Assembly: GCA_050084515.1 (NCBI GenBank)
Contig: CM114271.1
Span: 1,550,001-1,614,000 of the forward strand
Reading direction: 5' to 3'
Length of the DNA: 64,000 nucleotides
Source of the DNA: Blasia pusilla
Taxonomy: Eukaryota
This document shows, in pieces, positions 10,256 through 64,000 of this stretch (positions within the stretch are counted from its first letter, which is position 1; every line of letters begins with the position of its first letter). The translations under genes were made by a program, and so were the position numbers. Below the pieces are notes generated by a model. That model searched no databases, was not told where the DNA came from, and saw nothing but the letters and a program-made list of their open reading frames with translations.

Positions 10256-10258
10256 AAA

Positions 10259-13212: not shown

Positions 13213-14107
13213 CGGGACGACCTCTCCTCAGTTATCCAGCAATAAAACACCAGGAGAAGCCATGGCACGCTCTATCGCGGATCTAGCGGGCATCTCCGCC
13301 ATCCTAGCAGCCGCAGCCTGCTATGAATCTGACGTGGACGGCCCGAGCATCCGCTCCAAGGGCAGGTCCATCACCTCCTCTACAATCACCTCTTAACGTG
13401 ATGTAGGAAATCAAACTCCACGCTCACATAGCCTAGCAGCCAGTCAAAAAACCTCGGCGGGCGTACCTCCCAACGTCATAACATCGGAAGCAGAAAATAA
13501 AGGAGCGCAGTACACAACGGTGGCCCCCCAACAACGTTCTCGACACATACCCCTCCTGAGCATCACCAATAGGAGTCTTCGCGCTGGCTTCTCCCATCGC
13601 CCTCCGTGCCTACACACCAACAACATCACCAACTCTCCAATAACTCTGATCAAGACCCATCGATGGGGTCCTCATCGCCTTGGACAACATGTGAAAGACT
13701 GAGGAAGCCTAATCTGTTTCCTGGCTTCCCCTCGCTGCGGATCCAACTCTGCGGCTGCTCCACGCGTCACAACTGCGGCGGCCTCCATCTAGGCAGTCCC
13801 GCACATCCAACCAGGATCCTCCATATCTCTGGCTGCTCCATATGATGTCGATGCCACAGATCCCGCATCGGGTAATCTCAATGCCATAGCGGCAATCTTC
13901 TCATGTAGTTGATGTATGAGCAGCTATCCTAGCCTCACGCCCAGCGTCTTCCTCGACGCGTCTAGGTGGTGGGACTCTATCTTCTCCACAAGCAGCTCCA
14001 CCACCATGTCGGGCAGCTCCACTTCCTCGTCCTCCAATGGGACCACCTGGTGAACGATATCTAGGCCCACCCGAACCGGCTATTCGCTTTGGTGCCCTCT
14101 TTGGCCC

Positions 14108-27953: not shown

Positions 27954-29392
27954 TTTACGAGACCTATCGCACTCCCTTTGTCACAACTTATAGTTGTGTG
28001 CTTGGATTCTATGAGGATGTGTCAAATGCAAGCGGACATGAGCAGTCCTTTGTGACATCATCACCCCTATCTCGAGTTAATAAGAATAGAAGTAAATGAA
28101 TGAAGGAAATTATGGCATCCCATTGTTCCTAACATTGTAAACATGGAAGTGAAAATGTTTCAGTATGGTGGATATCTATTGGAGCAGAATATGTTGATTT
28201 CAATATAAATGAAGGGAGAATCTATAATTATCCACCTACCTTGAGTATGAGGTATACCCCTCCGGGAAATATAAACCTCCAGTCCATATCCTTCTTTGAT
28301 AGTGATAATTTGATCCTCTACAATCCGCAAATGCACTTTGACACACACCTTCACAACATGACATATGTAGATGTCTTAAGTATATGCAAAGAGATTGTAT
28401 CACACGAATGATCAGATATAAATACATCATTACAGTTTGAATACTATAAGGTGGTATAAGATTTATTTTACCCTAAGTCTATGTGCACTTGAAGTGATGA
28501 TTTATCTATGATTTCAGAATTTCAGACCATTTCGATGTCAAGTGCCTTATCTTTAGGTTTGAAGGGTAGGGTTATTTCTTCTATATTTCTTCATGTAAAC
28601 ATTGTAGCTTTGAGTTTTTTTTGGGCATATTATTCATTAAAAAAAAATCACACAGTCGGAGGATTAGCCCTCATTGCTAACAAAATCCGGTTCAATTTTT
28701 TGCCACATCACAACTCCATAAACACATTGCTGCCCTGATTTTTTTTCATCCAAAATACTACATTTTGTGGTAGATTTTGTGTGATATTGAATTCTATGTT
28801 GATGCTATGGAAAGATATAGAAAATCAAACCACTTAGCCAATGCATTCATGCAAAAATTGAAATCATCCACGTTTACATAAACTGCAATATTCTGGTCGA
28901 AAAATGTTGGCTAGCCCTAAACCCTCCGGTACCTAAACCTCCCGTGGAGTCCAAGACTCACCGGGTGGTCCCAAGTTCTCCAAACCTTGTGGGTCTCCAA
29001 GTGTGGAGGACCATGACTTGGCCATTTTGACCGGTCCGTCAACTCGATAGCGTTAGCAATAAGATTCGACACCTTCCTTGAGGCACAAGTCACCTCTTGC
29101 GTTCCGATGACATGTTGGTTCAAATACCCGTCACACGCTCACACCTGTCATCTGCGAATTTCTGTCTCCTATTGTCATCTCGTCTGGTTGATTCCGCTTA
29201 CTGCACTCACATCTGGGAATTTCGCGTGCTTCGCGTCGCTTAGCGTTCTCCTTCTTCACTATTTGCTCTTCCTAAGTTTGATACTGAAGTCTGTGTCACC
29301 GTTTGCCTCACGGGATCGAGACGCACTCGGTTTGATCTCGGCGATTGGTTTCAGGCACGGGAATTGTGAATCAACGTTCTGTCTTCGAGAAT

Positions 29393-31524: not shown

Positions 31525-34500
31525 CAGGGGCTGGAGATTTCCCGGAAACTTGCTGGACGGAAAGGGATAGGGCAGTTTTCTACTGAATAGGTGACGGAAA
31601 TACGCCGTTCCGACGGCATGCCACTCGGATTCTGGTTGTCGGCAAAAGAGTCATTCCGGTTTGCTGCCCCATCAGTTGCCGGCTGCCGGAAAACTAGAAA
31701 CTATCAGATCTAATCGAGGCCCTCCATCTTAGGGCAAGCCGCCACGTCAGGACTCGGGAGTTGGGCGACTCGGGCAGTCAGGCCTGGACAAGACTCCGAG
31801 CCTCCGAGGGGGTAGAGTGGAGGGGTTGGCATTTGCATGCCTCCTTTTGTCTGAGTTTTTCACCTCGACTGCGCGCGACTCCTCGCTCTCTCGTTGTTGT
31901 AAACGCTCTCTCATTTGTTGTTGGAACTTGGAAGTCGCTGTGAGCTCGGAGCATCGGTGTTTTTTTGGTTAGCCCCTCGTTTGGTGCTTCGCGTCGCTGT
32001 AGCTAGTTGTTATTTCGCGCTCCCTCGTTGATGCTCGCTCTGTGCGTTGTTTGAGCTGTAGACTTTGATTGGGTTCGAGAGAAAGGAACTACAACGGAGG
32101 GACATGGATATAGTGGCACCCTTCGCCTTCTTGGGCGCATAAGAACCCGCTTTCTTGACAGGTTTATGTTGCGCAGCTTACATAGCTTCGCTTAGAGTTT
32201 TACCCAGGTGGAGCCTTGGGTAGGGCAATAGGGCTCGCGGGTTTGGATTACTTTAGTGAAGTGCACAACAGTAAGAGAAAAATTGTAGAATATAGTAGGT
32301 CCTTTACACCATATTTTAGTATCTACGTCATAGTTTACACTCTCTGAGCCTCTATATGGCTAAGAGACAACGAACAATGAATGAGATGCTACACAAGGAA
32401 GTTAGTCAAGACTTTGCAGAGGAGAACAGTAGGTCAGGATCATCGGATGGGAGAGAAGGGGACAAATCAAATACTTCTCCGACAAGTCAGAGTGAGAATA
32501 ACAGATTGGCTTGGAAGGATGTTTTGTATACTTTGTTCCATTGGATAGAATTCCATGTAGAATCTGGTCGGATTTTTTGCAAAGTTTGTAGATAGGGTAA
32601 GGGGAAAAGCTCCTTTGCCAGGGATGGTGCCATTAACTGTAAGGTTTCGGCCTTCACAGATCATGGTAATAAGCACATGAAGCTTGCATGGGCTGCGAAT
32701 ATGGGGAACAGATCCTTGGCCAAGGCTATAGCCACTACAAACGGACTTGTGATATTGCACTTTTGACTTTGTTCAAATGTGCATATTTCGTTGCAAAGGA
32801 AGCCTTGCCATTTTCGAAGTTCTCAAATCTGTGTAAGTTATTGATTTCTGTGAATGCACCTATAACCCGCGACTTGTACCAAGATGAAAAAATTTGTGCT
32901 GATATGTGTTATTATATTAGCTAGGTTCTTCTCAGGAGGAACCTTTCTAAAGTGCAACAATCTCCTTTCTTTGGGATAATGATTGACGAGTCCACAGATA
33001 TGTCTGTCACTGGACACCTTGTTGTATTTGCAACTTACTTAGATGAGGGGCAAGTAGAGAGTTGTTTTATAGGATTGCTACAATATCCAGAGAAATGTTC
33101 GAACGCAATCACTAACAATTTGTTGGAGTTGATAAAGGATTCGGGACTTGAGGGATCAAAACTGGTTGCCTTTGGATCTGATGGAGCTTCTACTATGGTA
33201 GGAAGCCAAAACGGAGAAGCATCTCAGTTGAAACAGAAGTTCAATCCTTTTATGTTGTCTGTGCATTGTGTGACGCACAGGACGAATCTCGCTGCTTTAA
33301 CAGCAGCAAAAGGTGTAGAGTGTAAGGAAATATCTATAGAAGTAGATTCAATCTTGAATGCAGTAGCTGGATATTTTAGAAGGTCGTCCAAGAGGAAGTG
33401 TGGTCTTGCAACTTTGCAAGAGAAGTTGAACGATTCTCAGAAAGTGATGAAGAGGTACCACAAGATTCGCTGGTTGTCACGTTGGCAGGTTGTTACTACT
33501 TTATGAGACTCATTGGAATGTGTCCTTGCATATTTCAGAGATATCTCGCCCTCGGAAGATGATGGTAATGCTGCAAATTTGTATAACAAACTCAGATCAT
33601 TTCAGATGATCTATCAGCTGTACTTTTTGGCAGATATTTTGTTTCTTCTTGCTAACTTGAGTAAGGTGTTCGAATATAAGTTTGTAGATGTTAGTACCAT
33701 AGGTAGTATGGTGACTTCTGAAATAGCTTCCATAACAATGAATTTTGTAATGGAGAACCTTGATCTGAATGCCTCCACTTTCTCTGAAGAAAGTGGTTAT
33801 CACATTCTACCAGACTTTGATCCTCCAGGGGGTTATTTGAAACGTTTACAATCTGAGATTAGGGGCAGAAAGTTCCATAGCATAGAAATGTTGAGGAATC
33901 GGACAGGAAAGGATCTAGAGGATGCCTTGTTGTTTCAAAAGAATTTTTGTGAGAGTATTTGTGTAGCTTTACGAGATCGGTTTAGGGATAACAACTTGAT
34001 TAGTGCTATGAGGATAATGAATCCTCTACACATGCCTTCAAGGCAAGTGGGACTAAATAGTTGGGGTTGTAAGGAATTGGATGACCTCTGTGCACATTTT
34101 GGGACGGACTTACCCTTCAAAGGTCACTTGCAACCTTCTTTACTAAGTGTAGAAGCTGTGAAAAAAGAGTTTCAATCATTTAAGCTCATGGCCACCACGG
34201 AGTGGAAAGATCGGAACTTCAAGGACTTGTGGGCTATGGTAAGTTGGAGCCCGTCCTTGCAATGCAAGTTCTCTAACTTGCTCATTTTAGCCAATATTGC
34301 TAAGGTATAGTGTGTTAATACTGCTATTTGTGAGAGAGCTTTCTCTGTGCAGAATGTGATTAAGACTAAAAGTAGGAATAGGTTAATGACAAAGCATTTG
34401 GATGATGTTCTTAGGATTGCCTTAGAGGGGAAAATAGATGATTATGAAGCTTTGTTGGTTGAATCCGTAGTTCTTTGGAAGAATTCAGCACACTTTAGGT

Positions 34501-41668: not shown

Positions 41669-44481
41669 TTAGTTAGATATATTTAAAGGCTCCGAAATCT
41701 CATCAAGAAATGAGTGAAGAGCTTGATATGAAGAGCCACCCTTTGCCCTGGTTTTTGACAACATCCTTTTGAAATATTTTATATTGCTCTTTATTTCTTC
41801 GACTTGTTCAGATTGATCCATCGTCAACATCCTAATTGCCTTCTCCAAATCTTCCCTGCCAACGTTGTTATAATCCTCATTTGCACTCTTCATCGCCCAT
41901 CCTACCTTCCACACATTCGTCACAATCCTGCATAGAACAAAATTATTCAACATATGTAGCTTTTCAACGTATATTCTAAGAAAATTGTTATAAATTTTTT
42001 GAGAATCTAGTAAACACTAGAGAAACATGCATGCTCTTATATTGGACTAACTACAAAAAGTAAATATAAAGAAGATTATTTCCAACAAGTTAAAAAAAAG
42101 AAATATTTTTTATATTTAATTTCTTGGAAATGGATACGTCTAATGCAAAGGTTCAAAGAGAGGAGAATAAACTAAAATGTGAATCCCTGCACATACATAA
42201 AAAAAATTAAAAAATTAAAATTACAACAGGAGCTAATTAAAATTCATGTAGATATTATAGTGTTTCAATTGCAGGTTTCTCACACCATAGTGGATAACCA
42301 ACCAACATCCAAAGTCAAACTTGTGAACAACATGGGAGAATAAAACCCGTCACTTATGGTCAAAAACCTTTATGTTCAAACAAAAGAAAAAAGAAACACT
42401 AGACTTGCAATCGATCCGAAGCCTCGTGCAAAAAAAGCTGGAGCAGGACAAAAGACTAAACTTGTGCCCGATACGGAGGAAGAAAAGGCAAGAAGTCAAA
42501 GACACATGTCATGCCAACCATTGAAACATAGGAGCAAATTTTCTTACCGGGCAGTCATCGGTTGGTCCAGAGCAACAGGCCATGGGATAATCGGCACTCC
42601 AGCGCATAAGCTCTCGAGGATCGAATTCCACCCGCAGTGCGTCATGAAGCTACCCACAGATGGATGCTCGAGGATTTGGGCCTGTGGCGCAAACCCTCGT
42701 TCCACGAAGCCTCGGCCTTTCGTCCGATCGTTGAAATCGGGGGGTAACACGGATGCCACATCACACGCCTCCGATAATCTCAAAACCCACAAGAAGCGCA
42801 CCCCGCTAGATTGCAATGCATGCGCCAACTCCAACATAGAGTGAGGTCCGATGTTGATCACAGTTCCGAAAGCGATATATAGCACCGATGTCGGCGGCTG
42901 CATGTCTAGCCATCGCAGGCACTCGGATGTGGTTGAAGAACACGTGGTCGACATCATCTTTCCGAATCCTTCAATTTTTGCGATGGGACCAATGGAAAGG
43001 ATCCTTGTAACCTGCATCTCTTAGTTTTACAATACTAGTTAGTATTTAACACCGTAGTACTTTTGAATTTTAAGTCCCATATGAAGGTTGCATTAGTCCA
43101 CAATGCCACGTGTAATATCATCCCCGAAAGGTGGTGTTACAACTTGAATAGGTGGTCACCGGAGTACAGATCACTTCTCTTTGCACTTATCCGAAATCTA
43201 CTCCTTTCCATAGGGTTCCACAAAGTCCCGTCAAGGCATAAGAGCACTTTTGTAGTGCAAAAGTACTCCTATTTTCTATATTCTATTTATATGTATATTT
43301 CTCTTCTCTTGTGTAGTGCAACAATTAAGAAACAACGGAGGATTAGTAGAAAGACGATGAAAGAATTCTGCAGGCGAGAAAGGGTGTGGGCGTGGTGACC
43401 GGGAAGACGTATTACCGGGCGGTTTTCCGCTGTCGCTCGTGGTTCCCAGATCGTCTGGATCTTCCGCACGGAATCGAGAGGTGCATATGCGTCCAGTTCC
43501 CGCGCTTGATTTATCAGAACCGCAGTCGCTCTCTCCACTCGCTCCAGCTGGAACTTGAAGAACTCAGGATCGCTGAAGATGTCCAGAGGCAGATCATGAA
43601 CGCGAGCGAATGGCAGCTCCGGAATGGGCTTGCTCCTTACCTCCACGTTCGCGGGATCTCGGAGCTCCAGCTTCGGCTCCGACGGACCTAGCAAACAGCC
43701 CAAAGCGTACGCCGAACCGCAGGGATAGATGGGGTACCACGCGGCTCCCAATTCGTCCGCTACGTCCTGCCAAGAATTCCAACGGAAGATCAACGTTTTC
43801 TCAAAACTTTTCATCAGTTGATAAAATCGCTCACAGCGCAATCTCATTCCAGGACTGCAGATCTCGTCTGCTGCTGGATCGCTCGGAGTTCTCGGGATTC
43901 AATGCTACCTGCGCTTGTCATGGAGCACAGGATCGCTCAGAGCTCTGACGATTCGCTGCTCCCATAAGAGCTCTTGCGACTCAGGTTGTCGCAGGACTCG
44001 TGTCGATCGAGAAAGAGTATTGAGGGGAAGTCAATCTCAAACGACGGAGAGAAAGAAAATCGGAGGCAGGCGATGGGAGGCTCACCTTGAGCCACGGGAA
44101 GAACATGTCACAGATTATGCTGGTGACAGGTTCAGAGCCCTCGACCTCCTTGTCTCGAAGCAGCCTCTGCCTCAAGGGTTGAAAGCCGTCCCTCGCACTA
44201 TCGCACAAGATCGTCGAGCCTGTGATCTCCGCCAAGTTCACCGACACTCCTGGCTCAATTCTCAAATCCACGCCTTTCAGAGCACCCTGGGCTGCCATAG
44301 CTTCGACCTCTGCCTTGAAAGCTCGCCCGGAAAAAGCCGTCACTATGGTCCTACCAGCGTACCGACTGTCGTTGCTGAGGAGGTACATGATATGACTGTA
44401 CACATAAGTATGGCTTGCAAGATCTGCCGGTGCCAGAAGCACATGCGCCCTTGGACGCGCCATCCCGCTCTCCCACGCCAT
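41669..44481 (-). CDS. Family-1 UDP-glycosyltransferase (UGT-A), 4 exons, ~489 aa
   Basis: Exons 44481-44086, 43766-43416, 43011-42548, 41927-41669 (GT-AG, in frame). N-terminal His (LASH), ICDMFFPW, SVLYIAFGT, PSPG box FAPQAQILEHPSVGSFMTHCGWNSILESLCAGVPIIPWPVALDQ, C-terminal GGSS. Confidence 0.93.
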
Positions 44482-45608: not shown

Positions 45609-48600
45609 ATGGAGCCAGCATTTCAGCGCGAGCGTCGGCCTCATTTGCTGCTAGTGCCAGCAGGTATTAGCGGCCATTACGCGCCAGTCCTGCAGCTCTT
45701 GTACCACCTCAACGAAGTCCACAACAACAACGCTGCGAAACTTATGGTGACATTGATCAGCAATGAGAAACGCGTTTTGGAGTTGTCGGAGTTGCATTCC
45801 AGAGGCGACTTCCAGCGCTTGGACCTTCGACTGTTGGTAGTCTTCACATCGCCTTTGCCCGCGCACAATGATCCACGCTTTCCTTCCAGGCCCTGGACGT
45901 CTTGCCGGATTCTAATGAAGGATTACAATTCTTACATGGATAATTGGATCCGGGAACTGGATCCCGCTGAAGCGCCCACCTGCATGATTGCTGACATGTT
46001 CTTCGATTGGACTCAGGTGAGGGAGTGAGAGTCTCCTTTCGTTTGGCAGACTTCCAGGCTTTCATCGACCAGTGCTTAATTTGCAGAAAGGTGTGGATTG
46101 ACCTTGCATTTGGTCTCTAGACAGAACGGCTGCACATGCGAGGTCCATGTGAACTGATTTCGAGTCTGTAACGCTTTGCAGCTTACGAGTATCTCAGCTC
46201 GCTGCACCATAAGCTCGTTGACATGCTGACGATTTTGTGCAATTGCAATGTAGGACTATCTTTAGCCTCTGCAGGAATCTGCCCTGAATTTTCCCGCAGC
46301 ATGAGCGAGTGTTTCGACGTCATGATGGTTCTCGTTTTGTGCAATTGTGAGCGAGGACTATCTGTAGCCTCCCTGCTAGGATCTGGATATCCCGCACCAC
46401 GAGCGAGCTTTTTCGAAATCGTGGTGGCGCTCGTTGTGCGCAAAATTCCAAGCTAGGACTATCTGTAGCTGCCCCGCCAGAATCTGCTGTGAACTTTCTG
46501 TAGGAGGGGTGAGGTTTGTCGACATCACGATGGCGGTGCTCAATTTGTGCAATCGCAAGCTCGCTGGTTAAGAAGCTTAGGACCATCTATGGCCGCCGTA
46601 CTAGAAAGTGAAACCGCTGCACTATGAGAATCGGAAATCTATGAAGCACGAATTTGATCATCTTGTGGCGGTTGCAGAGCACAGCAGAGAAGTTGGGAAT
46701 TCCTTGGCATGTGTTGTTTTCGACGGCTTCCTGGTACTTGTTCACCTCCATCACTGGGTCGGAGCTGCTCAGCTCAGAACTGAAGGACGAGCCCATGCCC
46801 AAGCTCACGTTCGGCCGCATCCGACACCTTCCCCCGGAAATGTGCGAGAACCCGGAATTCTTCGCAACGCTAACCAAAGCGTTGATAAAAGCTTCTGCAA
46901 TTCTAGTGAACACAGCCGAAGAACTGGATGCCCAAACGGGAGGACTCATCGCCATTCGGGCTCTGCTGGAAGATTTGGCGATCGCTGGTAATTGCCCGGT
47001 AAGCCACCTACTCCGAGAACTCTGCTGCCCCATGAGATGCACTGTCTGGCAGGGGATTAGATTATGCAGGAAACGAACTTCTGCTTTGAGAACGATCAGA
47101 AAAAGGTTCTTTCAGATGACGTCGTACCATCTGTTAGCCGCTCCCGAGGAATGCACTTGCGAGAGCCCGGTAATCCATTGTCCTCTATTCCCGAGCTCTG
47201 ATTTAGGGACAGCTTCCGATCGAGTGGCTCGAATTCACCACCAATGGCATCCGAAGTCTCCAGCAAAAGCATTAGTGAGTAAGTGAAGTAACTGTTGGAA
47301 ATCCTGAACGGAGGGTAGCTTACAGTCGAGCGGTGAGAGTGTACGAATATTCACTCTCTTTTTCGGTCGTAAAATTTACAGAAACTCTCGCTCCACATGT
47401 TCCACACATGTGAAGAATGTGGCGATATTTCTAAAAGCTGATCTTGCAAGTTAGCTGGCTGAAATAGAGTTAGTACACCAAGCCTGTTAAAACCGAAAGT
47501 GTAAAGTTACTTTGTCTGGATGTCAAGGTTTCGTGGGTCCTGATGAAGCTCTTTAAGATCCATTCTAGGAAGGTTCATACATCCCAGACATGAACCGTAT
47601 TTTTTCTCATGTCCGCGCTCACTACTAGATTCGATTTTTTATTTTAAAATCAAACCTACTATTTAACTAAGTAGACCATGAGCCTCCGCCAAAATCACGT
47701 GGTCTATTTATTCTTACTCATAGTTGGTGGGGATTATCCAGATCACAAGGTTTTTGAGGCATGATCACACAGTGTCCCTTGTTGAAATCGATGCGTGAGA
47801 TCGTGTTTTGTTGAAGGTGACCAGTGTTCGCATATTTTAGCGTTTCCCTGGAAGGAATCAAACACTGTGGGGACCGTGATGTCTGATGCAGGCTCCGAGA
47901 GTGCTGCCCGTGGGGCCGCTGGCGCACATCCCAGGATTCTCCCGCATACCTTTCACGGAGTCAAGCGCAGAATGCCTGCGGTGGCTGGACTCGCAGAGGG
48001 AGTCGTCGGTGCTGTACATCGCGTTCGGCAGCATCGCCAACATCAGCCCCGCGGCGATGCTCGAGTTGGCTCACGGGCTGGAGACCAGCGGCGTGCCATT
48101 CCTGTGGGTCCTTAAAGCCCCTGTATCCAGCAAGCCGAGTCCCTCGGCGGATGTCCGGAGCCTCCTTCCCCCGGGCTTCCAAGAGCGTACCACAGGCCAG
48201 GGCTTCATCGAGACGGGGTGGGCCCCACAGCAGCAGATACTGGCCCACCGTTCAACGGGTGCGTTTATGTCGCACTGCGGCTGGAACTCCACGCTGGAAG
48301 CGATTTGTGCCGGCGTTCCGATCATCACTTGGCCTATATTTGCCGACCAACCGTTGAATGCCAGGTGCGTGCAATATTCTGCGGTTCTATTTAATAGTGT
48401 TTTTAACTCCGTGGTTTTTTTCGTCGGGTTTGTTCAATTCATTTACGGTCCTAAATTTGCCCGGTCTCCTTGGAAAAAAATAAAATTCCCAAGTTTTGTT
48501 CCAATCTAGTAAAGTAGAGGACCCCGCCTCTCCCCCCGTCCTTTCCTTGAACTCCGCTCGATTAGAGAAAACCCCCTTAGTTTGTTTTTAATAGGTTGCA

Positions 48601-51339: not shown

Positions 51340-54300
51340 TGTCACGACTTTTAGGATAGATCGACAAGATCTAGTAGAGCGCCTTCAGAGATACTGGAAG
51401 ACAACCTCAAGAGGTCGAGGATGACGTGCTGTGGCCACGGGTAACTTGAGAGAGCAGGTTTCCCCTTTGTTTCTGCTCATTTGGAGCCATATTCAGAAAC
51501 TTAATATTTTGGATAAGTTTCTATTTGGAGTATACTTTACTTTCCACTCTGGGAAGGGGGCCTATGATCTGCTACAGCAGCTCAAGAGCTAAGTAGATGA
51601 CCTGCGAGCATATGTTACCGAGGAGAGAGCTTGGGAGAGGGAAAGGGGTATACCTCCAAGAGAGAGAGCTTGAGAGCTCATTCTCTCTTTGTTGAACCTC
51701 TTGGCATGAGGCGGAGCTATGGTCCTCCTTGCCTCGTGTGTGTAACCCAAGACTCTCATTAGGAGAGTGGGTTTGGTTTGACATGAGAGAGAGTGCACAC
51801 CATAGAAATCTTGGTGTGAGATGTGATGTGAGATCTACTTCATTTACAAAGAGAGAGTGAGAGGGCTTGAATGGAGGAGCTCGTTGATCACTCGTTGTTG
51901 GTGCAGGTTGGAGATCGTGTTTCCCGTTCAGCGGCTCATAGGAGTGCTCATGGGAGCAAGAGCCGCTCCGTTTGTTATTTTGTTGTTCAATTTTTCGTGT
52001 GGGAGAGTGGCACGCGGAAGGGTTGCCAAAATTTGGTTACAAATTGTGTATAGGGGCGGGTTGCCTCATGTCGATGCTCTCAAGAGTACCTTGTAGCTTA
52101 TTAGTTGTTGTATTTACAAGTTTGGAATTTTTGTTGGGAGAAATCAAAGCGGAAGCCCTGCCAAATTTTCTGTAGGAGTGGAGATTGAAGAGCTACACGA
52201 CAGTCCCCGTTTTGTTTTTGGGAAGGTCAAATAAAGAAACCAATTTGATATTGTTGTAAATCCATAAGCTGTGCACGTTATGGAAGAAACGGCTTGCAAT
52301 TAAAACATATGAGCAAGAAGTTATGATCATTTAGGGTTCTTAAGAACGTGCACAGCTTACGGCACCGCGTGAGGAAGGAGCACATTTCGAAATTCTTGGT
52401 AACTTCTTTGTTGAGGGAGAAATTTTTTTAAAAAAAATTTATCATTGGAGAAAGGAGAAGTGAAACTTAGGATCTTGAGATTAAAGTGTGTGGAAACTTC
52501 ATTTAGTGGGAGTTGACCCAATATTTATGGGGCTTGGTGGAGTATAAGCCAAATGTGAGTAATTTTAATGAGTTGACCCTTAGTTTAAGGAGTTAGTGGA
52601 GTTGGAAAAAAAAACTTAGATATTTTGAATAAGGTCAAAATAGAACCATTTTTATCCACATGAAATATATTGTAATTAATGTTCACTTTCACCGTCCATG
52701 CGGGCCGTTCTTGCTCCGTCCATTGGCCGCCGTCGACGACATTCTTCACCGTTGTTGATTGGACGGTGACTTTTTTGGAGTCATGGGATCGCCATTTCTT
52801 TTCACTTTGCTATGTTGTAATTGGTAGCCGCTCGACGACAATCTAGTATCGTGTCATGATGTCCGTAGGCGCAAGGCGCTGCCGATTGCCGCGTTGTGCT
52901 GCTCGTGGCCATACTGCACCATCTCCATCACGGAGCCACACCATCATTGTGGAGCAGATTATGTTTTTTTTATTGATAAGGTATGCCAATGAGTGCCGCA
53001 ACCTATTCTCGAGTGTTGTGTCATACCCTTTGAGTCGTTCCGTGCCGCTAGTGCCACACCGTATCACTAGACCCGCACCGCACATCGAGGAGATTTGAGC
53101 ATCGTCAGTATCAAGGGAGTACAACATGCTATTGAGAGGAGTTTGTCTTTATGATTAAGTTGGGGTCGAGGTTTCCAATTTCTGAGGAGCGATCAACATT
53201 ATTGTCAGGTTATCCATGTAGAAAACTGCTAAAGAAGCATAACTGGTGGAAAACGGCTCTCTCAATCAGTTATATAGATGTTCCTTTCTCAATTATATAG
53301 GTTATGTACAAGAAATCCTAACCCTAATCTTAACCATACTCTTGAGTTAGACTAATTGTGATTAACTAACCAAAGTTAAGATAATCGCGATTAACTGACT
53401 AACCATGATTAAGCTTCCCTACTTCATGTGAGTACCAAATGTAGGAGTTCAGGTGTCTCATGAGCTTGACTATAACTCAATCTTCAATATCCCCCTCAAG
53501 CTCATATTGATATCTCTAATGTCTAAATCATTTCTAAACATCTCAAACTTATCTCTAGACAATGTCTTTGTAAAGATGTCACCAATTTGCTGATCTGTAC
53601 TTATATACAAAAGATCAATTTCTCCTACAAGCACTTTCTCTCTGATAAAATGATAGTGCACCTCAACATGCTTTGTACGAGCATAGAACACAAGGTTATT
53701 AGCAAGCTTGATGCTACTAATATTGTCTGCATATATTACAGTAGGTCCTAAGTCACTAACACCAATCTCAACAAGTAATCGATGAAGCCACACCACCTCA
53801 CATGTTGTATTGGTTGCTCCTCTGTACTCAGCCTCTCTTGAAGATAAAGCAATTGTAAGTTGCTTCTTTGAAGCCCAACTTATACCTACGCTTCCCAGAG
53901 TAAATGAATAACCAGATGAGGAGTGTCAATCAGATACGCTTCCTGCCCAATCAGCATCCGTGAATCCCTCTAATTGTAAACGCGGAGAAGGTTAAATTAA
54001 GCCCGAATTGAACAGATAATTTCACATACTGCATAATCCTCCTCAAACATCAAGGTAAGATTTTCGGGGTGCTTACATAAATTGGCTCACTAGGCCAACT
54101 CCATAGCTCAAATCTGGCTTGGTTATAGTCAAATAGATCAAACTTCCAACCATGTGCATGTACATATTAGAATCTGCAAGCACCTCTCCTTCATCCACTT
54201 TTAGCTTCATACTTTGGTCCAATAGACTAGAGATTGGCTTACAAGCCGTCATACCATATTTTGAAAGCATGTGAAGAGCATTTTGTCGTTGTAGTAACCA

Positions 54301-57300
54301 CATGCTCTCTCCAACCTTGATAAACTCAATACCAAAGAAGTACTTAAGTTCTCCCAAGTCCTTCATATCAAATTCTCCTTCTAATTTTAGCTTGATTTTT
54401 TGTACGATATCCTCAATACTCCCAATAATCAAGAGATCATCAACATACAACACAATAATTATCGTATGATCTTGTCCTCTCAAGACATATAACGAGGAGT
54501 CAGAATCACATACCCTAAAACCCAACTCTTGTAGGACGTATGTAATCTTGCCATACCAAGCTCTTGGAGCTTGTTTGCGCCCGTATTGAGCTTTTTTCAA
54601 CTTGCATATGCAAAATGGAAGCTCGGGATGCTCGTATCTATGTGGTTGAGTCATATATACCTCCTCATATATATCTCCCTTCAAGAAGGCATTCTTGACA
54701 TCCATGTGATATAATCTCCATTTCTTACTTACTACAACTGCAACCATTGTTCTCGCAGTTGCCATCTTTGCAACAAGACTAAAAGTTTCCTCATAATCAA
54801 TGCCATATTGTTATGCATAGCCCTTAGCCACCAATCTCGATTTGTATTTGTTAACTGTACCATCTTGATTGCACTTGATTTTGTAAACCCATTTGCAACC
54901 AATAGCTTCCTTACCGTAAGGTATATCAACCAGCTCCCAGGTCTGTTGATGTCTTAATGCAGCAAGTTCTTCCTCCATAGCTTCAATCCATTCGACTTTA
55001 CTTGCAGCTTCTCCAAAATAACTTGGCTCCTATTCTTGAAGGATAGTCATCTTATATGCATGATGTGTTGCAAGAAAGCCTTTATGTATAAATCTATGAA
55101 CAAGATGTGTGATTCTACTTGATCTACAAAGTTTTTTTTTGGAGGTAGATGCTTCTCACACCTGACTCAAGCTCTGACTAGTGTCAATAGATTGAATACG
55201 TACATTTCCCATCGATGGACTCACAAATTTAACTGACGAATCTAAGACCTCTCCTAATCCTGCGCTAGTACTTGGGGAATTTGGGGGGATTTGAAGACAA
55301 TGTCTATTGGTTTACAATCATATTCTCCTCCTCAACGGAAAAGTTTAAACGTGGAATGGGCTCAGATGGAGCATACCATGATTTTAGCTCATCAAAGACA
55401 ACATCGTGATTAATAATAAGGTGCCTAGAGGATGGAATGTAGCACTTATACCCCTTAGTTCCATCAACATAGCCAATGAATATACATCTTTGAAATTCAG
55501 ATTTGGGGTCTAATTTTTGACGTCTTTCAGAAGGAACATGAGCATAACAAATACAACCAAATACTTTCAAGAAGGAAAATCAGGTTTATTTCCTATGAAG
55601 ACTTCAAATGGAGTCTTATCATGAAACTCTGCTATTGGAGTTCGGTTGATTAAGAAGACTACATATGCTACAGCCTGTGCCCAATACACCTTAGGCATGT
55701 TCTTTTCATTCAGCATAGTTCGTGCCACCTCAGCAATATTCCGATTTTGCCTCTCAGCCACTCTATTTTGTTGTGGAGTGTAATGGCAAGTCCCATGACG
55801 TTGGATGTCATTCTGACGTAAGTAGTCATCAAACTTTATTGAAATATACTCTCCTTCTCCATCACAATGCAATTTCAGAATGAGTTCTCAATCTGCTTCT
55901 CTACTAGAACTCTATATGTTTGGAACACTTAGAATACTTCTGACTTGGCTTTCAGAAAGTATACCCATACAAACCTAGAGAAGTCATCAATAAATGAAAC
56001 AGAGTACTGAAAACCACTAAGGTTATGTTGTGATGTTGTCCACATACCACTATGAATCACTCCAATATCTTGGATGCTCTTCTACCTTGCTTTGGAAATG
56101 GAAATCTAGCTTGTTTTCCAAATTGGCAAGTGGGACTCGCTAATTTAGGAAGTCCAATTACTGGATTAGATGATGAAAAACTTTGTAATCTTAGAAGATT
56201 CATATGTCCAATTCTCTTATGCCACATATTTAGATTTGTGACTTGTTGGCCAATTTGACCATACATTGCTATTTGAATCTCTGGCATAGAAACGTCTAAT
56301 TTGAACAATCTGCCAGATCTAGTTCCTTTGGCTATCATAGTGTGGTCATCCATTGTTTCAATGAAACAAACATCTATGTTAAACTTCACTTGATAACCCT
56401 GTTCTTCTATCTCCTACAAAGATAAAGTTTCTTTCAATGGTAGGAACATAGAGAACATTTCCAAGAGCACAAAGACCATCAGATGCTATTAGAACTTTAT
56501 CTGTACCCGTGATATGATGTTGAGTGTCATCTCCTATGAGCACAATTGCAAGATCTTTCACCGGTACTGATAAAGTTCTAATAGCATCTGATAGCATCCC
56601 TATATTGTGATATCATGTGATTTGATGCACTAGAGTCAATGTGTCAATCTGCTGTCGAGTCTTCCTTGACCATTGCTCCTATAAAATGAGTCATGACCAA
56701 GATACGCTCAATTTGTGAATGTTGTTGTTCTTGGTACTGCCATTGGTGGTGTTGCTCCACATAATTTTGTTGTTGTAAGGCTCTTGTTCTCATATATGCC
56801 TTATTCTTGAGGCAAAACTTTGCAACACTCACTAAGCTTTGAACAAAATTTCCTTCTCCCAAACTGGAATTATGCCTTCTCTTTCCTCTCTTTTCTCCTC
56901 AAACACCAAGAATTTCAAATGATATTCTCCTATGGCTCTGGTCCATAGAAAATTGCTAAAGAAGCATAACTGGTGGAAAATAGCTCTCTCACTCACACAC
57001 CACCATGGAGAACAAAATTTTGCAATGAGAGAATGAGTGGAGGCTGGTTCACTTCTCAATTATATAGGGTATGTACGAGCAACCCTAACCCTAATCTTAA
57101 CCATACTCTCGAGTTAGACTAATTATTATTAACTAACCATAGTTAAGATAATGGCGCTTAACTGAGTAACCATTATTAAGCTTCCCTATTTCGTGTGAGT
57201 ACCAAATATAGAAGTTTAGATATCTCATGAGCTTTACTGTAACTCAATCTTCAATAATCCATTCTTGTCTTTTGCCTTGCAGGTGTTAAGGATTTCCGAG

Positions 57301-57774
57301 TATTGGGTAGTTATTTGGGGATATTGGATTTCGTGCAGATGTTGAGAGCATCATTGATGTATGGGTTTAGGGGACATAGACCTGTGTGGGATATCAAGAG
57401 TTGAGGGTATGTGTTGTTTATGAGTCGATAGATCAGCCACTTTGCCGCACCACGCCGCTTGTTGCCGCACAACACACATCCCAATGAGAGAGTGTAGCTT
57501 GAGTGTCGCATGTCAGATGGAGTGATTGAATGATTACTCGCAAGGTTGAGAGTGATCGCATGAGAGGGGCACGAGGGTCATCACAACGTCCTTTTGGAAC
57601 TTTGAGAGGTGAGGTGATGGACCTGAAAGTAGCTCTAAGGGGTTTACCCGGAGTGGTGCGAGGTTTCAAGGATCTCCACGTGAGAGACCACCTCGATGTC
57701 CTTCTCTTTCGTCTTTAGACAAGGGGGAGAGTACAGGGGAGTTTGTTGGTGTATCACCACATATATTGAATGGT
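51340..57774 (+). mobile_element. Second copy of the DNMT-Gypsy family: 5' LTR, leader and first gag codons only; interrupted by a Copia
   Basis: Reverse complement of 17450 down to ~15194. Starts TGTCACGACTTTTAGGATAGATCG. Homology resumes after the Copia at 57257 and stops at ~57774. Confidence 0.88.
53217..57256 (-). mobile_element. Ty1/Copia element with both LTRs and 5-bp TSD; gag largely deleted
   Basis: TSD ATCCA at 53212-53216 and 57257-57261; the empty site gttatccattc is seen in the paralogous Gypsy at ~15702-15712. LTRs at 53217-53489 and ~56946-57256, PPT at 53490-53504. Integrase (YTPQQNRVAER), RT (HMDVKNAFL, LYVDDLLI), RNase H (TKHVEVHYHFIRE). Confidence 0.95.
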
Positions 57775-57782
57775 ATCATATA

Positions 57783-60700
57783 TATCATAAAACATACATC
57801 GCTGACATACCATACTCACATACATACATACATAGAGGAGAGCATCCACAAACACAAGTGTACCACAACTGAAATATGTGAAAGACCTACTGTCATAAAA
57901 CACGTATAGAATCACATACAATCGAGCCAAACCCACTCCACGATGGGAGAATCCAGGTTGAAGCTTGCGGGAACCACCATAGCCAAGAGCTCTACTCACT
58001 ACCAAGGCTAACTCCCAACGCAACAAGCTCAACTTAGAGAACTAACTGTTCTTTGAGTGCACTCCACACTATATCCTCCAACCTAAGAGCGGGCCCTATT
58101 GGAAAAGTCACCCTCAATTGAGTAACCCCCAACCCTATGTATGAAACCGCATCTCTACCTAGACACTACGGCTCTATATAAGGTATGGCCTCTACTAGCA
58201 TACTATATTCTACGACATAATCTGTATGGTCATGACAACTGTCGTGCGAATCCACATCGTCATACAACATACATCGCTGACATACCATACTCACATACAT
58301 ACATAACATAGACGAGAGCATCCACAAACACAAGTGTACCACAACTCGCCCCCGAAACTGGCGGTTAGGTCCCTCTTACTCCCAAGTAGCCCTATACATC
58401 TACTACATGCTATACACCTTCTTGGGTGCACGAATCAGAAGGCCGGATGCTAGGTTGCCCCATCGTTAGTCGCCCATCTGTAATCCATATCATGCAAAGA
58501 TCAAGTCATCTACCGCTCCTAAGTACATCGAGGACAAACCCACCTTCCAGTAGGAACAACATCCATTCGTGGAGTCAAACATATCATGTGCCAACCCTAG
58601 AACACCGATCACACACCAACATACGGGTTGCGTTACCAGCAAACCCACACAACATGCATCTCAAGCTAGCACGTATCATGGCTAAGCTTGGGTCAACAGT
58701 ACCATCCACATTTGGAAGATGACATGGCGCACAATTACGCACATGGTCCTTCCAAAAAACTCCATTACGACCCTCCGATATGAGAACTCCAAAAGCTAAC
58801 ACCTCGCCCACTCGTAAAATAGTACGGCCTGCCATCACATCCAACGTTGTCGGTGCAATCTGCTGCAAATAGACATAGTCCCCCACATGGAACTTACGAA
58901 TCGATGGTCGATAATCTCCACCCCGAATGGTTGCATAACGCAACGTATCCCTGTGTTGAGCAATGGCAAGATTCTCAAAGGTTGTTGGCATAACTCTCTG
59001 AAAGAGCTCTGCCCGCTGAGAACACACTCTCATCCACATCTCTGGGTCATCAAGGTTCACCACCTCACTAGACTCCCAATTAATTGCTACTGGAAAGTGT
59101 GGATCTTGGCAGTATATCAAAAAATAAGGTGAGAAGGAAGCCAAGGATGATTGGCGACTAAACCTATACCCCATGGCTAACCATGGCAACTCAATATCCC
59201 AGTCTCCAAGATGCTCCTTCTGTAGGCCATACTTGCGCAATGCCCTCTTCACCGTCTGAACCACATGCTCAGCCAAACCATCCGCCTCTGGATGATCTCG
59301 AGACGTGGTCCGATCATCAATCAACGCCTTGTCACACAAGACCTAAAACTCACTCTGAAACTCTGTACCCTGGTCGGTCAACACTTCAGCTGGTGCACCA
59401 AAATGACTAAGCACTCTATCAAGAAACGCATATGCCGTTCCCTCACTTGCCTTGTCAGGTAATGCCACCAACTCAATCCACTTGGAGAAGTGCTCCACCA
59501 TCACCAACACATATCGATGATGTAAATACCAACGGTAACGGTCCCGCAAAGTCCACACTCCAATGGTAACCCAACCCCATAATAGGCAAGGGGTGTAACT
59601 GTGGTGTAGGGGCATTGAATGATGCCCTCACCCGGTCACAAACCATACAACGTGACACCAACTGCTGCACGTGAGTATGCATGCCACGCCACCAATACTG
59701 ACCAAGGAATAAGCTATACGTACGCTTTACCCCAAAATGTCCCAACTCCTCATGGGCATGTCATACAATGCGCTCTCTCTGAGCCAAATGCGGCACTACT
59801 CGTACTCTACCATCCTCCCACACACGGAGAATATGTGTTCCCTCCAATCGATACCTCTTAGCACGTTGAAGAACACGGTCTCGATCCTTGGCACTCACTA
59901 TGCCTGGCACCCTACTGTCCGTAGGAACTCCAACACCAACGCATCATCATGAATATCACGCTGATCCGTACCACCATCTCCAACCTTAGGATCTGAAGGC
60001 TGGCCATCTACCCTCTGACTAGAGTAAGATGTCATGTGGTCTTCCATACTAGAGTCCACCCCTAACCAACATAAAAAGGCGGATGCATGCCAACCTGGCC
60101 ATGCCATCTAGCCCTAGTTGCATCCTCTTGGCTAGTACATGGGTTCCTACTCAACCCATCAGCATCAAGGTTGGCAACTCCAGGTCTATGTACCACCTGG
60201 AAGTCATACTCCTGTAAGATAAGAGCCCACCGTGCAAGCTTCCCTGTAAGCTTGTTAGACTCCATCAACCACTTGAGCGGCTGGTGATCAGTAACAAGGG
60301 TAAAGTGTGTGCCAAACAAGTAACACCTAAAGTGTGCCATAGCCCACACTACTGCCAAGCACTCTCCCTCATATGAACTATAGCGCGACTCTGTTGCATT
60401 ATTCGAATGACTTGCATAGGCCACCACAAACTCCATGTGCTCATCATCATATTGTGTCAACACCGCTCCAAGTCCCAACCTACTCCAATCAGTGTGTAAC
60501 TGAAATGGGCGCCCTCTGATAGGTCTCCTCAAGATAGGTGCCATCACCAGCTAGGCCTTGAGCTCCACAAAAGCTCTCTTCTGATCATCTCCCCAGTGCC
60601 ACTCTTGATCTGATTTCAACAATTGGTTCAAAGGCTTTGCCATAGCACTAAATCCCTTCACATACCTCCGATAGTAGTTCGCCAATCCCATGAATGCCCG

Positions 60701-61198
60701 AACTCTACTCACATCTACCGGACGAGGAATAAGTGCAATAGCCTCCACCTTTACTTGCTGAACTCCCAAACCACCTCGATAGATCACATAACCCAAGTAC
60801 TCAACATCCTCATGGAAGAACTTACACTTTCTTGGATGCAAACGTAGACCATGAGCTTTCAACCGCTCAACACAATCTGCAAATGTATCTGATGCTCCTC
60901 CACCGTATTATTGAACACCAAGATATCATCAATGTAACACCGAACAAAATCCAACCCTGGTAGGATCCTGTCCATCACTCTCTGAAACTCGGCAGGTGCA
61001 TTCTTCAACCCAAAGGATAAGAATTTCCACTGGTACAAACAATCCTTGCCATGAGAGTTGACATCCCAAAATGTTGTCTTGGCCTTGCCACTCTCTCGAA
61101 TCGGCAACTGATGGTATCCTGCTCGAAGATCCAAAGTACTGAATCTTTGCATGTCCCACCGCATCAAAGATCTCCTTTGGTGTAGGCATGACATATCT
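57783..61198 (-). mobile_element. Ty3/Gypsy element, 3' part (RT-RNase H-integrase-PHD, PPT, 3' LTR); same lineage as the DNMT-Gypsy
   Basis: RT: LDLRAGYHQ, FGLKNAPAEFQRVMD, CYIDD. RNase H: LHTDWS, EGECLA, TDHQPL. Integrase: GHFG..CMVC, VDFAGP, TDQGTEF, DGLAE. PPT gggggcgag at ~58345-58353; LTR TGTGG...ATGACA at ~58343-57891. Confidence 0.92.
58519..58658 (-). pseudogene. PHD finger at the integrase C-terminus
   Basis: Restoring one G at 58595-58597 gives CMLC-GFAGNATRMLV-CDRC-SRGW-HMIC-LTPRMDVVPTGR-WVCPRC-T*, a canonical C4HC3 PHD with the conserved Trp. Confidence 0.9.
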
Positions 61199-61202
61199 TA
61201 GT

Positions 61203-63923
61203 ATCACAACATAGCCTTAGTGGTTGATAGTACTTTGTTTCATTTATTGATGACTTCTCTAGGTATATATGGGTATACTTTCTGAAAGCCAAGTCAGAGG
61301 TATTCTCAATGTTCTAAACATTCAGAGTTATAGTAGAGAAGTAGATTGGAGAACACATTTTGAAATTGCGTTGTGATGGAGGAGGAGAGTATCTTTCAAC
61401 AGAGTTTAATGACTATTTACGTCAGAATAGCATCCAACGTCAAGTGACTTGCCGTTACACTCCACAACAAAATGGAGTGGCTGAGAGGAAGAATCGACAT
61501 ATTGCTAAAGCGGCACAAGCTATGTTGAATGAGAAGAACATGCCTAAGGTGTATTGGGTAGAGGCTGTAGCATGTGTAGTCTTCTTAATCAACCAAACTC
61601 TAACAACGGGAGTTCATTATAAAACTCCATTTGAAGTCTTCATAGGAAGTAAACCTGATTTTTCCTTCTTGAAAGTATTCGGCTATATTTGTTATGCTCA
61701 TGTCCCTTCTGAGAGACGTAAAAAATTAGACCCCAAGTGTGAAAGATGTATCTTCATTGGTTATACTGATGGAACTAAGGGGTATAAGTGCTACATTCCA
61801 TCCTCTAGGCAACTTATTATTAGTCAGGATGTTGTATTTGATGAACTACTCGATGAGCTAAAGTCATAGTATGCTCCATCTGAGCCTACTCCACCTCTAA
61901 ATTCGTTTGTTGAGGGGGAGAATATGACTGTAAATCAACAGACATTGTCTTCAACTTCCCCAAGTACTAGTGCAGGATTATGAGAGGTCCTAGATTTATC
62001 GGCTAAATCTATGAGTCCATGGATGGGAAGAGTACGTATTCAATTTTTTGACACTGGTCAGAGCTTGAGTGAGGAGTCAGAGGCATCTACCTGTAAACAA
62101 CAACTTCGTAGATCAAGTAGAGTTACACATCCAGTTCATAAATTCATAAATGAAGATTTTCTTGCGAAACATCATACATATATGATCACTATCCTTCAAG
62201 AACAGGAGCCGAGTTTTTTTCAAGAAGCTGCAAGTAAAGTCGAATGGATTGAAGCTATGGAGAAAGAGCTTGTTGCATCAAGATATCAACAGACATGGAA
62301 GCTGATTGATATACCTTTCGATAAGGAAGCTATTGGTTGCAAATGGGTTAACAAAATCAAGCACAATCAAGATGGTACAATTAACAGATACAAATCGAGA
62401 TTGGTGGCTAAAGGCTATGCACAACAATATGACATCGATTATGAGGAAATATTTAGCCCTGTTGCAAAGATGGCGACTACGAGAACAGTGGTTGTAGTTG
62501 AAGTAAGTAAGAAGTGGAGATTACATCACATGGATGTCAAGAATGCTTTCTTGAATGGAGATCTATACGAGGAGTTAGAACCACCTAGATACAAGCATAC
62601 CAAGTTTCCATTTCACGTATGCAAGTTGAAGAAAGCTCTATACGGGCTCAAACAAGCTCCAAGAGCTTGGTATGGCAAGATTACATACGTCCTACAAGAG
62701 TTGGGTTTTAGGGTATGTGATTCTGACTCCTCGTTATATGTCTTGAGAGGACAAGATCATACGACTCTCATTGTGTTGTATGTTGATGATCTTCTGATTA
62801 TTGGGAGTACCGAAGAAATGGTATAACAAGTCAAGCTTAAGTTACAAGCAGAATTTGATATGAAGGATTGGGAGAACTCAAGCACTCCCTTGGTATTGAG
62901 TTTATCAAGGTTGGAGAGAGCATGTGTTTATTACAATGACAATATGCTCTTCATATGCTTTCAAAATATGATATGACGGCTTATAAGCCAATCTCTACAC
63001 CGTTGGATCAGAATGTGAAGCTAAGAGTGAATGAAGGAAAGTTGCTTACAGATTCTAATATGTACAGGCGCATGGTTGGAAGTTTGATCTATCTAACTAT
63101 AACCAGACTAGATTTGAGCTATGCTCTTGGCATAGTGAGCCAATTTATGCAAGCATCTGGAAAACCTCACCTTAATGCTATGAGGAGGATTATGCGGCAT
63201 GTGCAATTCTCTATTCAATTCGGGCTTCAATTTGAACCTTCTCCGAGTTTTCAATTACAGGGATTCACAAATGTTGATTGGGCAGGAAGCGTGTCTGATC
63301 AACACTCCACATCTGGTTATTCATTTACTTTGGGAAGCGCAACTATAAGTTGGGCTTCAAAGAAGCAACCTATCGTTGTTTTATCTTCAATAGAGGCTAA
63401 GTACAGAGGAGCAACCAATGCAGCATGTGAGGCAGTGTGGCTTCATCGATTACTTGTTGAGATTGATGTTAGTAGCTTAGGACCTAGTATAATATATGCA
63501 GACAATATTAATAGCATCAAGCTTGCTAATAATCCTGTGCTTCATGCTTGTACAAAGCATGTTGAGGTGCACTATCATTTTATCAGAGAGAAAGTGCTTG
63601 CAGGAGAAATAGATCTTATGTACATAGTACATATCAGCAAATTGATGACATCTTTACAAATGCATTGTCTAGAGATAAGTTTCAGATGTTTAGAAATGAT
63701 TTAGGCGTTAGAGATATCGATATGAGCTTGAGGGGGAGTATTGAAGATTGAGTTACAATCAAGCTCATGAGACACTAGAACTACTACATTTGGTACTCAT
63801 ACAAAGTAGGGAAGCTTAATCTTGGCTAGTCAGTTAAGAGCGATTATCTTAACTAAGGTTAGTTAATCATAGTTAGTCTAACTCGAGACTATGGTTAAGG
63901 TTAGGGTTGCTTGTATATACCCT
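61203..63923 (+). mobile_element. Ty1/Copia element, 3' half (integrase core, RT, RNase H, PPT, partial 3' LTR)
   Basis: FIDDFSR, LRCDGGGEY, YTPQQNGVAERKNR, MDVKNAFLNG, LYVDD, TKHVEVHYHFIRE. PPT gagggggag, then LTR from 63739. Same family as 17451-19755 and 53217-57256. Confidence 0.93.
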
Positions 63924-64000
63924 TGTAAATAAAATTGGGTTGTGTTCATCTATATTACTAAAAGAGGACCGGGTTTGGAAAACCCCTCCTCTTGTGTCGA
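63924..64000. mobile_element. Probable start of another LTR element nested in the Copia 3' LTR
   Basis: Homology to the Copia LTR stops after ...ataccct, and unrelated sequence begins with TG (TGTAAAT) and runs off the window. Confidence 0.5.

Follow-up and report, generated by a model that had tools for sequence, protein, structure and literature searches.

The closest described relatives of the element treated here are the Gypsy-DNMT3 retrotransposons of streptophytes, known from Klebsormidium as KnitGypsy-Dnmt3. Their pol is of the Ty3/gypsy type, their polyprotein includes an intronless DNMT3-like domain, and it was proposed that this DNA methyltransferase (DNMT) methylates the DNA of the element itself (de Mendoza et al. 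2018, PMC5890265). Chromoviruses are guided into heterochromatin by a chromodomain at the C-terminus of their integrase (Gao 2008, as cited in later papers). PHD fingers are known from retrotransposons as well and are called a widespread or common accessory domain in the passages of three reports that mention them (PMC6673714, PMC8557442, PMC9940879). Finally, a preprint of 2026 presents as new the EpiLTRs of Cymbomonas and Euglena, in which a chromodomain is combined with a methyltransferase for adenine and with a DNMT related to DNMT4; the Gypsy-DNMT3 of streptophytes counts there as an acquisition of its own (bioRxiv 10.64898/2026.05.21.726589). Here we analyse a Ty3/gypsy copy from Blasia pusilla whose integrase ends with a PHD finger and which lies in a stretch of 64,000 nucleotides, hereafter called the window (contig CM114271.1 of assembly GCA_050084515.1, positions 1,550,001 to 1,614,000 of the forward strand). 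An original prediction, made from the letters of the window alone, had noticed this finger and had linked it to a second, DNMT-carrying Gypsy element of the window, called element A in the following.

By six-frame translation we could show that a C4HC3 PHD finger forms the C-terminal end of the Ty3/gypsy integrase on the minus strand and that the finger is split by one frame change. Read over the break, the ligand pattern is C-x2-C-x11-C-x2-C-x4-H-x2-C-x14-C-x2-C, with eight of eight zinc ligands and the tryptophan preceding the histidine kept. The open reading frame (ORF) of the integrase (59342–58587, minus strand) runs into the first half of the finger, which comprises the ligands from the first Cys-x2-Cys to the next (58596–58664, minus strand); the second half, from Gly-Trp-His to the last Cys-x2-Cys (58522–58596, minus strand, followed by a stop at 58519–58521), lies in a frame displaced by one base. 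The break at about 58596–58599 fits one missing base relative to intact relatives. The Pfam profile PF00628 matches the two pieces at profile positions 1–21 (13 bits, E 0.11) and 23–47 (22.2 bits, E 1.5e-4), which jointly span the whole model; singly the halves stay below the gathering score of 24 bits because the frame break splits the finger, and in intact relatives the score is 31–41 bits. A family hidden Markov model (HMM) made from the PHD segments of 108 relatives and run against the 64-kb window gave 14.5 bits (58664–58596) and 29.4 bits (58596–58522) at this place and no other credible PHD site in the window. The predicted PHD finger hidden by a deletion of one nucleotide is thus borne out by the translation, by the two PF00628 halves and by the family HMM, its position less so: it had been placed directly behind the integrase core, and is in fact found at the extreme C-terminus, about 210 residues past the rve domain and beyond the integrase C-terminal region. 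A chance occurrence of the motif can be ruled out, as there is a single site in 64 kb and a homologous domain in more than 100 relatives, and a host PHD exon joined by annotation can be ruled out too, as the PHD ends uninterrupted ORFs of transposable elements. No match to a chromodomain was found in the window copy or in the intact relatives scanned; the PHD finger stands in its place.

The PHD-bearing copy extends from 61.2 to 58.5 kb on the minus strand, and its Pfam domains follow the order reverse transcriptase, RNase H, H2C2 zinc domain and rve known from Ty3/gypsy elements (Metaviridae). In detail, the reverse transcriptase (RT) is found in two frames at 60554–61198 (PF00078, E 1.6e-16 and 9.9e-5), the RNase H (RH) at 60065–60550 (PF17917, E 3e-37), the H2C2 zinc-binding domain of the integrase (IN) at 59476–59760 (PF17921, E 1.2e-13), the catalytic core in a different frame at 59346–59627 (PF00665, E 5.9e-11) and the C-terminal region between core and PHD at 58665–59342, all on the minus strand. 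The copy is dead: between RT and PHD the frame changes five times and three in-frame stops occur. Its CpG observed/expected ratio is 0.54. Thus, the feature is the integrase-terminal PHD finger of a long-dead, 5′-truncated copy from a green-lineage Ty3/gypsy clade. As a mere fragment the copy is useful as a pointer to this lineage, which we followed in its relatives.

A protein search with the integrase tail returned 196 relatives; the following counts rest on the 120 that were listed. The best of these, one metagenome protein (P0001) and the Marchantia polymorpha protein Mp_7g09570 (P0002), are 79% identical to the ORF of the C-terminal region; other sources are Calypogeia, Klebsormidium, Haematococcus and Chromochloris, and no Selaginella name occurs among the 120. 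By name look-up Coleochaete scutata (a complete ORF derived from a transcript) and Hariotina reticulata could be added as hosts. Relatives thus occur in liverworts (Marchantia, Calypogeia) and in Coleochaete, and also in a moss (Sphagnum). According to precomputed Pfam assignments PF00628 is present in 113 of the 120 relatives, and 108 fulfil the strict C4HC3 pattern, which in the close clade nearly always ends a few residues from the C-terminus. As all zinc ligands are invariant in the alignment of the PHD fingers (A1) as well, the finger is a conserved, lineage-wide part of the integrase.

Intact members of this clade encode gag, protease (PR), a DNMT3-like cytosine methyltransferase, RT, RNase H, integrase and the terminal PHD finger. 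The order gag-PR-DNMT3-RT-RH-IN-PHD, which the original prediction had proposed for the intact lineage, is seen directly in several relatives. In Pfam scans P0017 (1516 aa) and P0186 (2811 aa) each showed all five domains, the DNMT, the RT, the RNase H, the integrase and the PHD, within one ORF. Pieces of the DNMT are united with the integrase and its PHD in P0002, a gene model of Marchantia, and the metagenome locus L001 encodes PR and DNMT in a first ORF and RT-RH-IN-PHD in a second. Among the 120 listed relatives the precomputed Pfam assignments give PF00145 in 11, of which 10 also have the PHD, and BLASTP with DNMT domains raises the number of DNMT-like relatives to 38. The reverse searches with DNMT domains gave 8 and 26 matches, most of them Marchantia gene models that end before the integrase and are therefore uninformative on the PHD; only P0146 and P0148 reach the integrase, and both have the PHD.

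A larger sample was obtained by scanning metagenome DNA with nine RT-RH-IN-PHD proteins, which yielded 80 loci from a handful of metagenome sets. A locus was considered informative on the DNMT with at least 1700 bp upstream of the RT and on the PHD with at least 2900 bp downstream, and the PHD was scored by HMM, as the strict C4HC3 expression misses most degenerate loci. The DNMT is present in 55 of 56 loci with sufficient upstream sequence, the PHD in 51 of 51 with sufficient downstream sequence (L076 included, with a wider distance filter), and both domains are present in all 36 loci informative on both sides. After clustering at 90% DNA identity this corresponds to 11 of 11 informative clusters out of 20. 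Thus, the possibility that elements of this kind carry either the DNMT or the PHD and never both can be dismissed by these 36 loci and by P0017, P0186 and L001. We hold this architecture of the lineage with high confidence.

The window copy itself has lost the part in question, so that one might suppose that it stems from a sister lineage which never had a DNMT. No DNMT is seen in it, and most close database ORFs (P0004–P0013) show none themselves. These ORFs start about 90–150 residues before the RT, and they show no DNMT because they begin inside the linker between DNMT and RT; in fact the complementary gag-PR-DNMT ORF1 models of Marchantia end 85–150 residues past the DNMT, and in L001 the DNMT ORF and the RT ORF adjoin each other with one stop between. 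In a tree of the RT-RH region the PHD-bearing copy joins the Marchantia proteins P0123 and P0139 (SH-aLRT 93) and next element A (96). P0123, which has the order PR-DNMT-RT-RH, is 81–86% identical to the PHD-bearing copy in RT-RH and only 44–62% to element A. Within the set of the tree, the DNMT elements of Marchantia are nearer to the PHD-bearing copy than to element A. The copy had been called a sister Gypsy of element A; a sister without DNMT is at odds with its grouping with the DNMT-bearing P0123. Given that the copy nests among DNMT-bearing rows of the tree and that the DNMT is so regularly present in the loci, a lineage that never had the enzyme is hardly credible. By phylogenetic bracketing the ancestors of the window copy presumably carried a DNMT.

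The lineage comprises two domain orders, DNMT-RT-RH-IN-PHD, which is the type of the window, and RT-RH-DNMT-IN-PHD, and these correspond to two RT-RH clades with full support. Since both orders are seen, the DNMT module occupies two slots in related elements. The second order is found in P0041, P0055, P0070, P0073–75, P0082, P0084, P0085, P0089, P0090, P0095, P0099 and P0146; this clade includes a protein of the chlorophyte Hariotina reticulata, and its DNMT is 31–41% identical to the Marchantia type.

The junction between DNMT and RT deserves some attention. In L001 the gag-PR-DNMT ORF (976–5082) and the RT-RH-IN-PHD ORF (5086–8226) lie in the same frame and are separated by a single TAG. This stop is located at L001:5083–5085, L002:4661–4663 and L031:502–504 in the only three of the 80 loci that align at the site, and in all three it is directly followed by CAR-YYA. 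The sequence TAG-CAR-YYA is the leaky-stop context of tobamoviruses, which suggests that the TAG may serve as a read-through control placing the DNMT on the abundant upstream product. The boundaries of the database ORFs fit such a stop: many RT ORFs begin about 90–110 residues ahead of the RT, and the Marchantia gag-PR-DNMT models have the ends given above. In other families the reading frame passes from the DNMT into the RT uninterrupted (L006, P0017, P0186). A further in-frame stop ahead of the DNMT in L006 was considered as a programmed site and rejected, because 38 of 48 aligned copies have TGG at this codon.

What kind of enzyme the lineage carries was judged from L001. Its DNMT has kept the Pro-Cys and Glu-Asn-Val motifs and among solved structures matches DNMT3A, 3C and 3B best (E about 6e-8), followed by M.HaeIII and M.HhaI at 5e-5 to 2e-4. 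The DNMT of the lineage is thus DNMT3-like by structure-database match of the L001 homologue. The best sequence matches of the PHD finger are CHD4, PHF12, BHC80/PHF21A (E 5.5e-13), KDM5 PHD1, ATXR5, DPF2/3, UHRF1, BAZ2A/B and AIRE, and further matches are KAT6A and KMT2C/D. For the fold, the last 273 residues encoded by L001 were modelled (model m59a1e7674b98). The model shows an SH3-like β-barrel within the integrase C-terminal region (pLDDT 80–83) in addition to the PHD block (pLDDT 83–87). For the finger alone Foldseek returned ATXR5 with H3 (TM 0.85), BAZ2A with unmodified H3K4 peptide (about 0.8) and BHC80 (0.78), as well as UHRF1 with unmodified H3 tail and ORC1b with unmodified H3. For barrel plus PHD of L001 the Tudor-PHD cassettes of PHF1, MTF2 and UHRF1 took the top ranks with large rmsd, a likeness in composition only. 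The proteins matched by the finger read H3K4me0 or the unmodified tail, as the titles of the entries state in part. Thus, by sequence and modelled fold the PHD finger resembles readers of the unmodified H3 tail of the BHC80, BAZ2A, AIRE and KDM5 PHD1 type.

Two other ligands have to be considered. Many PHD fingers read H3K4me3, and a finger of this type would direct the insertion to active promoters; the PHDs of cnidarian retrotransposons are in fact related, according to one paper, to PYGO, a reader of H3K4me. The best matches here are instead BHC80, BAZ2A, ATXR5, UHRF1, KDM5 PHD1 and CHD4, and no H3K4me3 complex is among the sequence matches listed or, by title, among the Foldseek entries listed, so that we regard this ligand as very improbable. 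PHD folds bind many partners, and the finger might therefore be a zinc module for some other contact, with a host factor, in nuclear import or in intasome assembly, and not a histone reader at all. In keeping with this, acidic residues are scarce before the first β-strand in the PHD of the closest clade. Against it, the solved fingers that come nearest in sequence as well as in fold bind the H3 tail, and the motif kept in more than 100 relatives spans the surface strand and the turn Pro-x-Gly-x-Trp, as is typical of H3-tail fingers. A zinc module without histone contact is consequently improbable in our view, if less so than a reader of H3K4me3.

Based on these likenesses we suggest the following mode of action for a reader of unmodified H3. 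From the end of the integrase, the place of the chromodomain in chromoviruses, the PHD would tether the intasome to nucleosomes without H3K4 methylation. New copies would thereby be steered off active promoters and toward silent, repeat-rich chromatin. The DNMT would be made from the upstream part of the polyprotein and would work separately from the IN-PHD part; plausibly it methylates the element's own cDNA or the new insertion, similar to what was proposed for Klebsormidium. Reader and writer would share one element and probably act at different steps. The overall explanation, a copy of a DNMT3-Gypsy lineage whose PHD guides integration and whose DNMT acts separately, has in our estimate a probability of about 0.7. 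That integration is guided by H3K4me0 through the PHD is a narrower statement, to which we would give even odds.

In animal DNMT3 proteins the catalytic domain is paired with an ADD domain, a PHD-like reader of H3K4me0. Mimicking this arrangement, the PHD of the retrotransposon could aim the element's own DNMT at H3K4-unmethylated chromatin, either in an uncleaved polyprotein or in a complex of integrase and DNMT. Such a strict coupling of reader and writer would be in line with the joint presence of both domains in every one of the 36 informative loci and with their retention across both domain orders; it is more plausible for the order RT-RH-DNMT-IN-PHD, in which the DNMT directly adjoins IN-PHD. 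In addition, algal DNMT3s are said to be without companion domains. In the clade of the window, by contrast, RT and RNase H lie between DNMT and PHD, so that both are expected as separate proteins; the in-frame TAG also intervenes in L001, L002 and L031, and processing by the protease would be expected to part the DNMT from IN-PHD. Furthermore, the PHD-bearing relatives P0100, P0105, P0088 and P0111 have no DNMT, which indicates that the PHD has a role of its own. We therefore consider strict coupling unlikely. Rather unlikely as well, and offered tentatively, is the broader idea that an ancient green-lineage Gypsy super-clade, present in chlorophytes, charophytes and bryophytes, using two domain orders and surviving in land plants, couples a DNMT3-type writer and an H3K4me0-type PHD reader as a functional unit. 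If this were true, the element would land in unmarked or silent chromatin and methylate itself, a self-silencing "stealth" strategy that puts the logic of DNMT3-ADD on a parasite.

Several observations weigh against a PHD-guided integration by an element with a separately acting DNMT. The DNMT of the window copy is not visible, as the 5′ part is missing from the window. One locus, L041, is without DNMT despite 2168 bp upstream of the RT, and the 80 loci are non-independent, forming 61, 20 and 7 clusters at 98%, 90% and 80% DNA identity, respectively, so that the 36 loci with both domains stand for no more than some 7–20 independent families. The model of the L001 tail is poor overall (mean pLDDT 63, pTM 0.29) and is confident only in the PHD block and the barrel. 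Some near fold matches read other states, namely Ehd3 (H3K4me1) and the DPF fingers (H3K14 acylation), and the scarcity of acidic residues mentioned above counts here as well. Finally, H3K4me0 is a putative ligand, assigned by likeness to solved fingers. Even so, a DNMT3-Gypsy copy with a PHD that guides integration and a DNMT that acts separately remains the explanation which we prefer.

The ends of the copy and its surroundings suggest how the DNMT part came to be missing. The 5′ truncation lies at about 61199–61202, as blastn finds homology to Copia from 61203 onwards. In this second, 5′-truncated Copia element (61203–64000, plus strand) the cut lies within the integrase, which there directly meets the cut RT of the PHD-bearing copy; the junction at about 61200 is thus a rearrangement and no clean nested insertion. 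The gag-PR-DNMT part of the copy was presumably lost through this rearrangement at the Copia fragment. At the 3′ end the copy carries terminal direct repeats on the minus strand: the proximal repeat X1 at 58260–58346 is 96.6% identical to the distal repeat X2 at 57785–57870, which is 475 bp away from it and, judged by blastn and by the layout of related loci, likely is the 3′ end of the element. The window copy therefore shows an X-Y-X split repeat at its 3′ end, its 5′ end being missing; in related loci a 3′-terminal X-Y-X goes together with a Y at the 5′ end, which is a DIRS-like layout. Such a 3′ repeat is found in 7 of 23 loci examined, just past the PHD and with X copies 450–489 bp apart, and Y is repeated at the 5′ end in six loci. 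One example is L006:13026–13679. Repeats of this DIRS/Ngaro-like type here belong to an element whose integrase is a DDE enzyme. In L001 a search for LTRs found no direct repeats.

Element A, the DNMT-Gypsy of the window, comprises its 5′ region, gag, PR, DNMT and an RT cut at about 10257 (10257–15709, minus strand), as recognised by translation, by PF00145 with 22 bits and by tblastn with P0123 and P0124. In its DNMT the catalytic Pro-Cys is changed to Pro-Tyr and Glu-Asn-Val is kept; the copy has many stops. At least 17 gene models of Marchantia polymorpha are related to this DNMT. The RTs of element A and of the PHD-bearing copy share 72% DNA identity over 569 bp and 129 of 190 aligned residues (68%) in the protein, and the near-identical blocks quoted for the two RTs by the original prediction were found in both. 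The LTRs of the copies had been described there as diverged, which we cannot follow: at the 3′ end of the PHD-bearing copy we find the DIRS-like split-repeat end just described and, next to it, a fragment of a third element. This fragment, of the A type, abuts the 3′ end of the PHD-bearing copy in opposite orientation (57257–57774, plus strand; blastn 79.6% to 15709–15194), resumes at 51342–53217 beyond a Copia insertion with collinear matches up to 17448, and is collinear with 2.3 kb upstream of the gag of element A. The inserted Copia element (53280–57256, LTRs 53280–53489 and 57047–57256) splits the fragment. The fragment stops exactly at the 3′ end of the PHD-bearing copy, which may reflect an insertion of one member of the lineage into another. 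Taken together, the PHD-bearing copy has a further member of its lineage and two Copia elements as neighbours, an anecdotal point in favour of the preferred explanation. The window as a whole is plant-like in content, with a Tnp2-type transposon and two UDP-glycosyltransferase genes besides its Copia and Gypsy elements: the ORFs at 25231–27980 (minus strand) and 32925–34307 (plus strand) belong to a Tnp2/CACTA-type transposon (PF02992, PF13960, PF13963) and a DUF4371 (hAT-like) ORF, and fragments of UDP-glycosyltransferase genes (PF00201) at 42547–43020 (minus strand) and 47880–48506 (plus strand) are the sole host-like genes seen near the cluster of transposable elements.

How parasites read and write a host epigenome can be learned from retrotransposons that bring chromatin tools with them, and in the lineage described here a DNMT and an integrase PHD are kept together in essentially every informative copy. 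The word "PHD" is absent from the text and the legends of PMC5890265, of which Fig. 4c and the supplements may show one. The original prediction had named the Selgy lineage of Selaginella as having integrases with a PHD; the text of the REXdb paper contains neither "PHD" nor Marchantia. In the searchable text we found no description of a pairing of DNMT and PHD or of such elements in bryophytes. An opinion paper of 2019 states that methylase-encoding transposons do not occur in land plants such as tracheophytes; our relatives extend methylase-encoding retrotransposons into bryophytes. As the lineage is present in Marchantia, which is genetically tractable and for which chromatin maps are published, the choice of insertion sites by readers of transposable elements and self-methylation by their DNMTs become testable; the enzymes of Klebsormidium and Symbiodinium have already been assayed for de novo CG methylation.

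The window copy is a dead member of the known Gypsy-DNMT3 kind, and the constant pairing with a PHD, the presence in bryophytes, the two domain orders and the possible read-through stop are modestly new. The lineage shares with Gypsy-DNMT3 (PMC5890265) the streptophyte host, the DNMT3-like domain in the polyprotein and repeats that are called DIRS-like in a figure legend of that report, a remark with which the X-Y-X layout agrees. The IN-PHD proteins P0008 and P0035 of Klebsormidium are among our listed relatives and provide a link to its element, with both domains not obtained in one Klebsormidium protein; a difference is that Gypsy-DNMT3 was reported from a charophyte alga, whereas the relatives here occur in liverworts, a moss and Coleochaete. 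REM1 and Gypsy-7a_cRei of Chlamydomonas likewise are green-lineage LTR elements whose pol includes a PHD. However, the legend for Gypsy-7a_cRei places the PHD between RNase H and integrase and mentions no DNMT. As in EpiLTRs, an LTR retrotransposon combines a DNA methyltransferase with a chromatin reader, but the combination here is a DNMT3-like enzyme with a PHD. Similar to animal DNMT3 with its ADD domain, a DNMT3-type domain is found together with a putative reader of the PHD kind; unlike there, the two domains are widely separated within the polyprotein, for which cleavage is expected, and the finger is a canonical PHD on the integrase and not an ADD on the methyltransferase. Finally, like in chromoviruses a chromatin-reader domain ends a Ty3/gypsy integrase and presumably chooses the chromatin of the insertion site, in contrast to chromoviruses, however, this reader is a PHD finger, and its expected ligand is the unmodified H3 tail instead of H3K9me.

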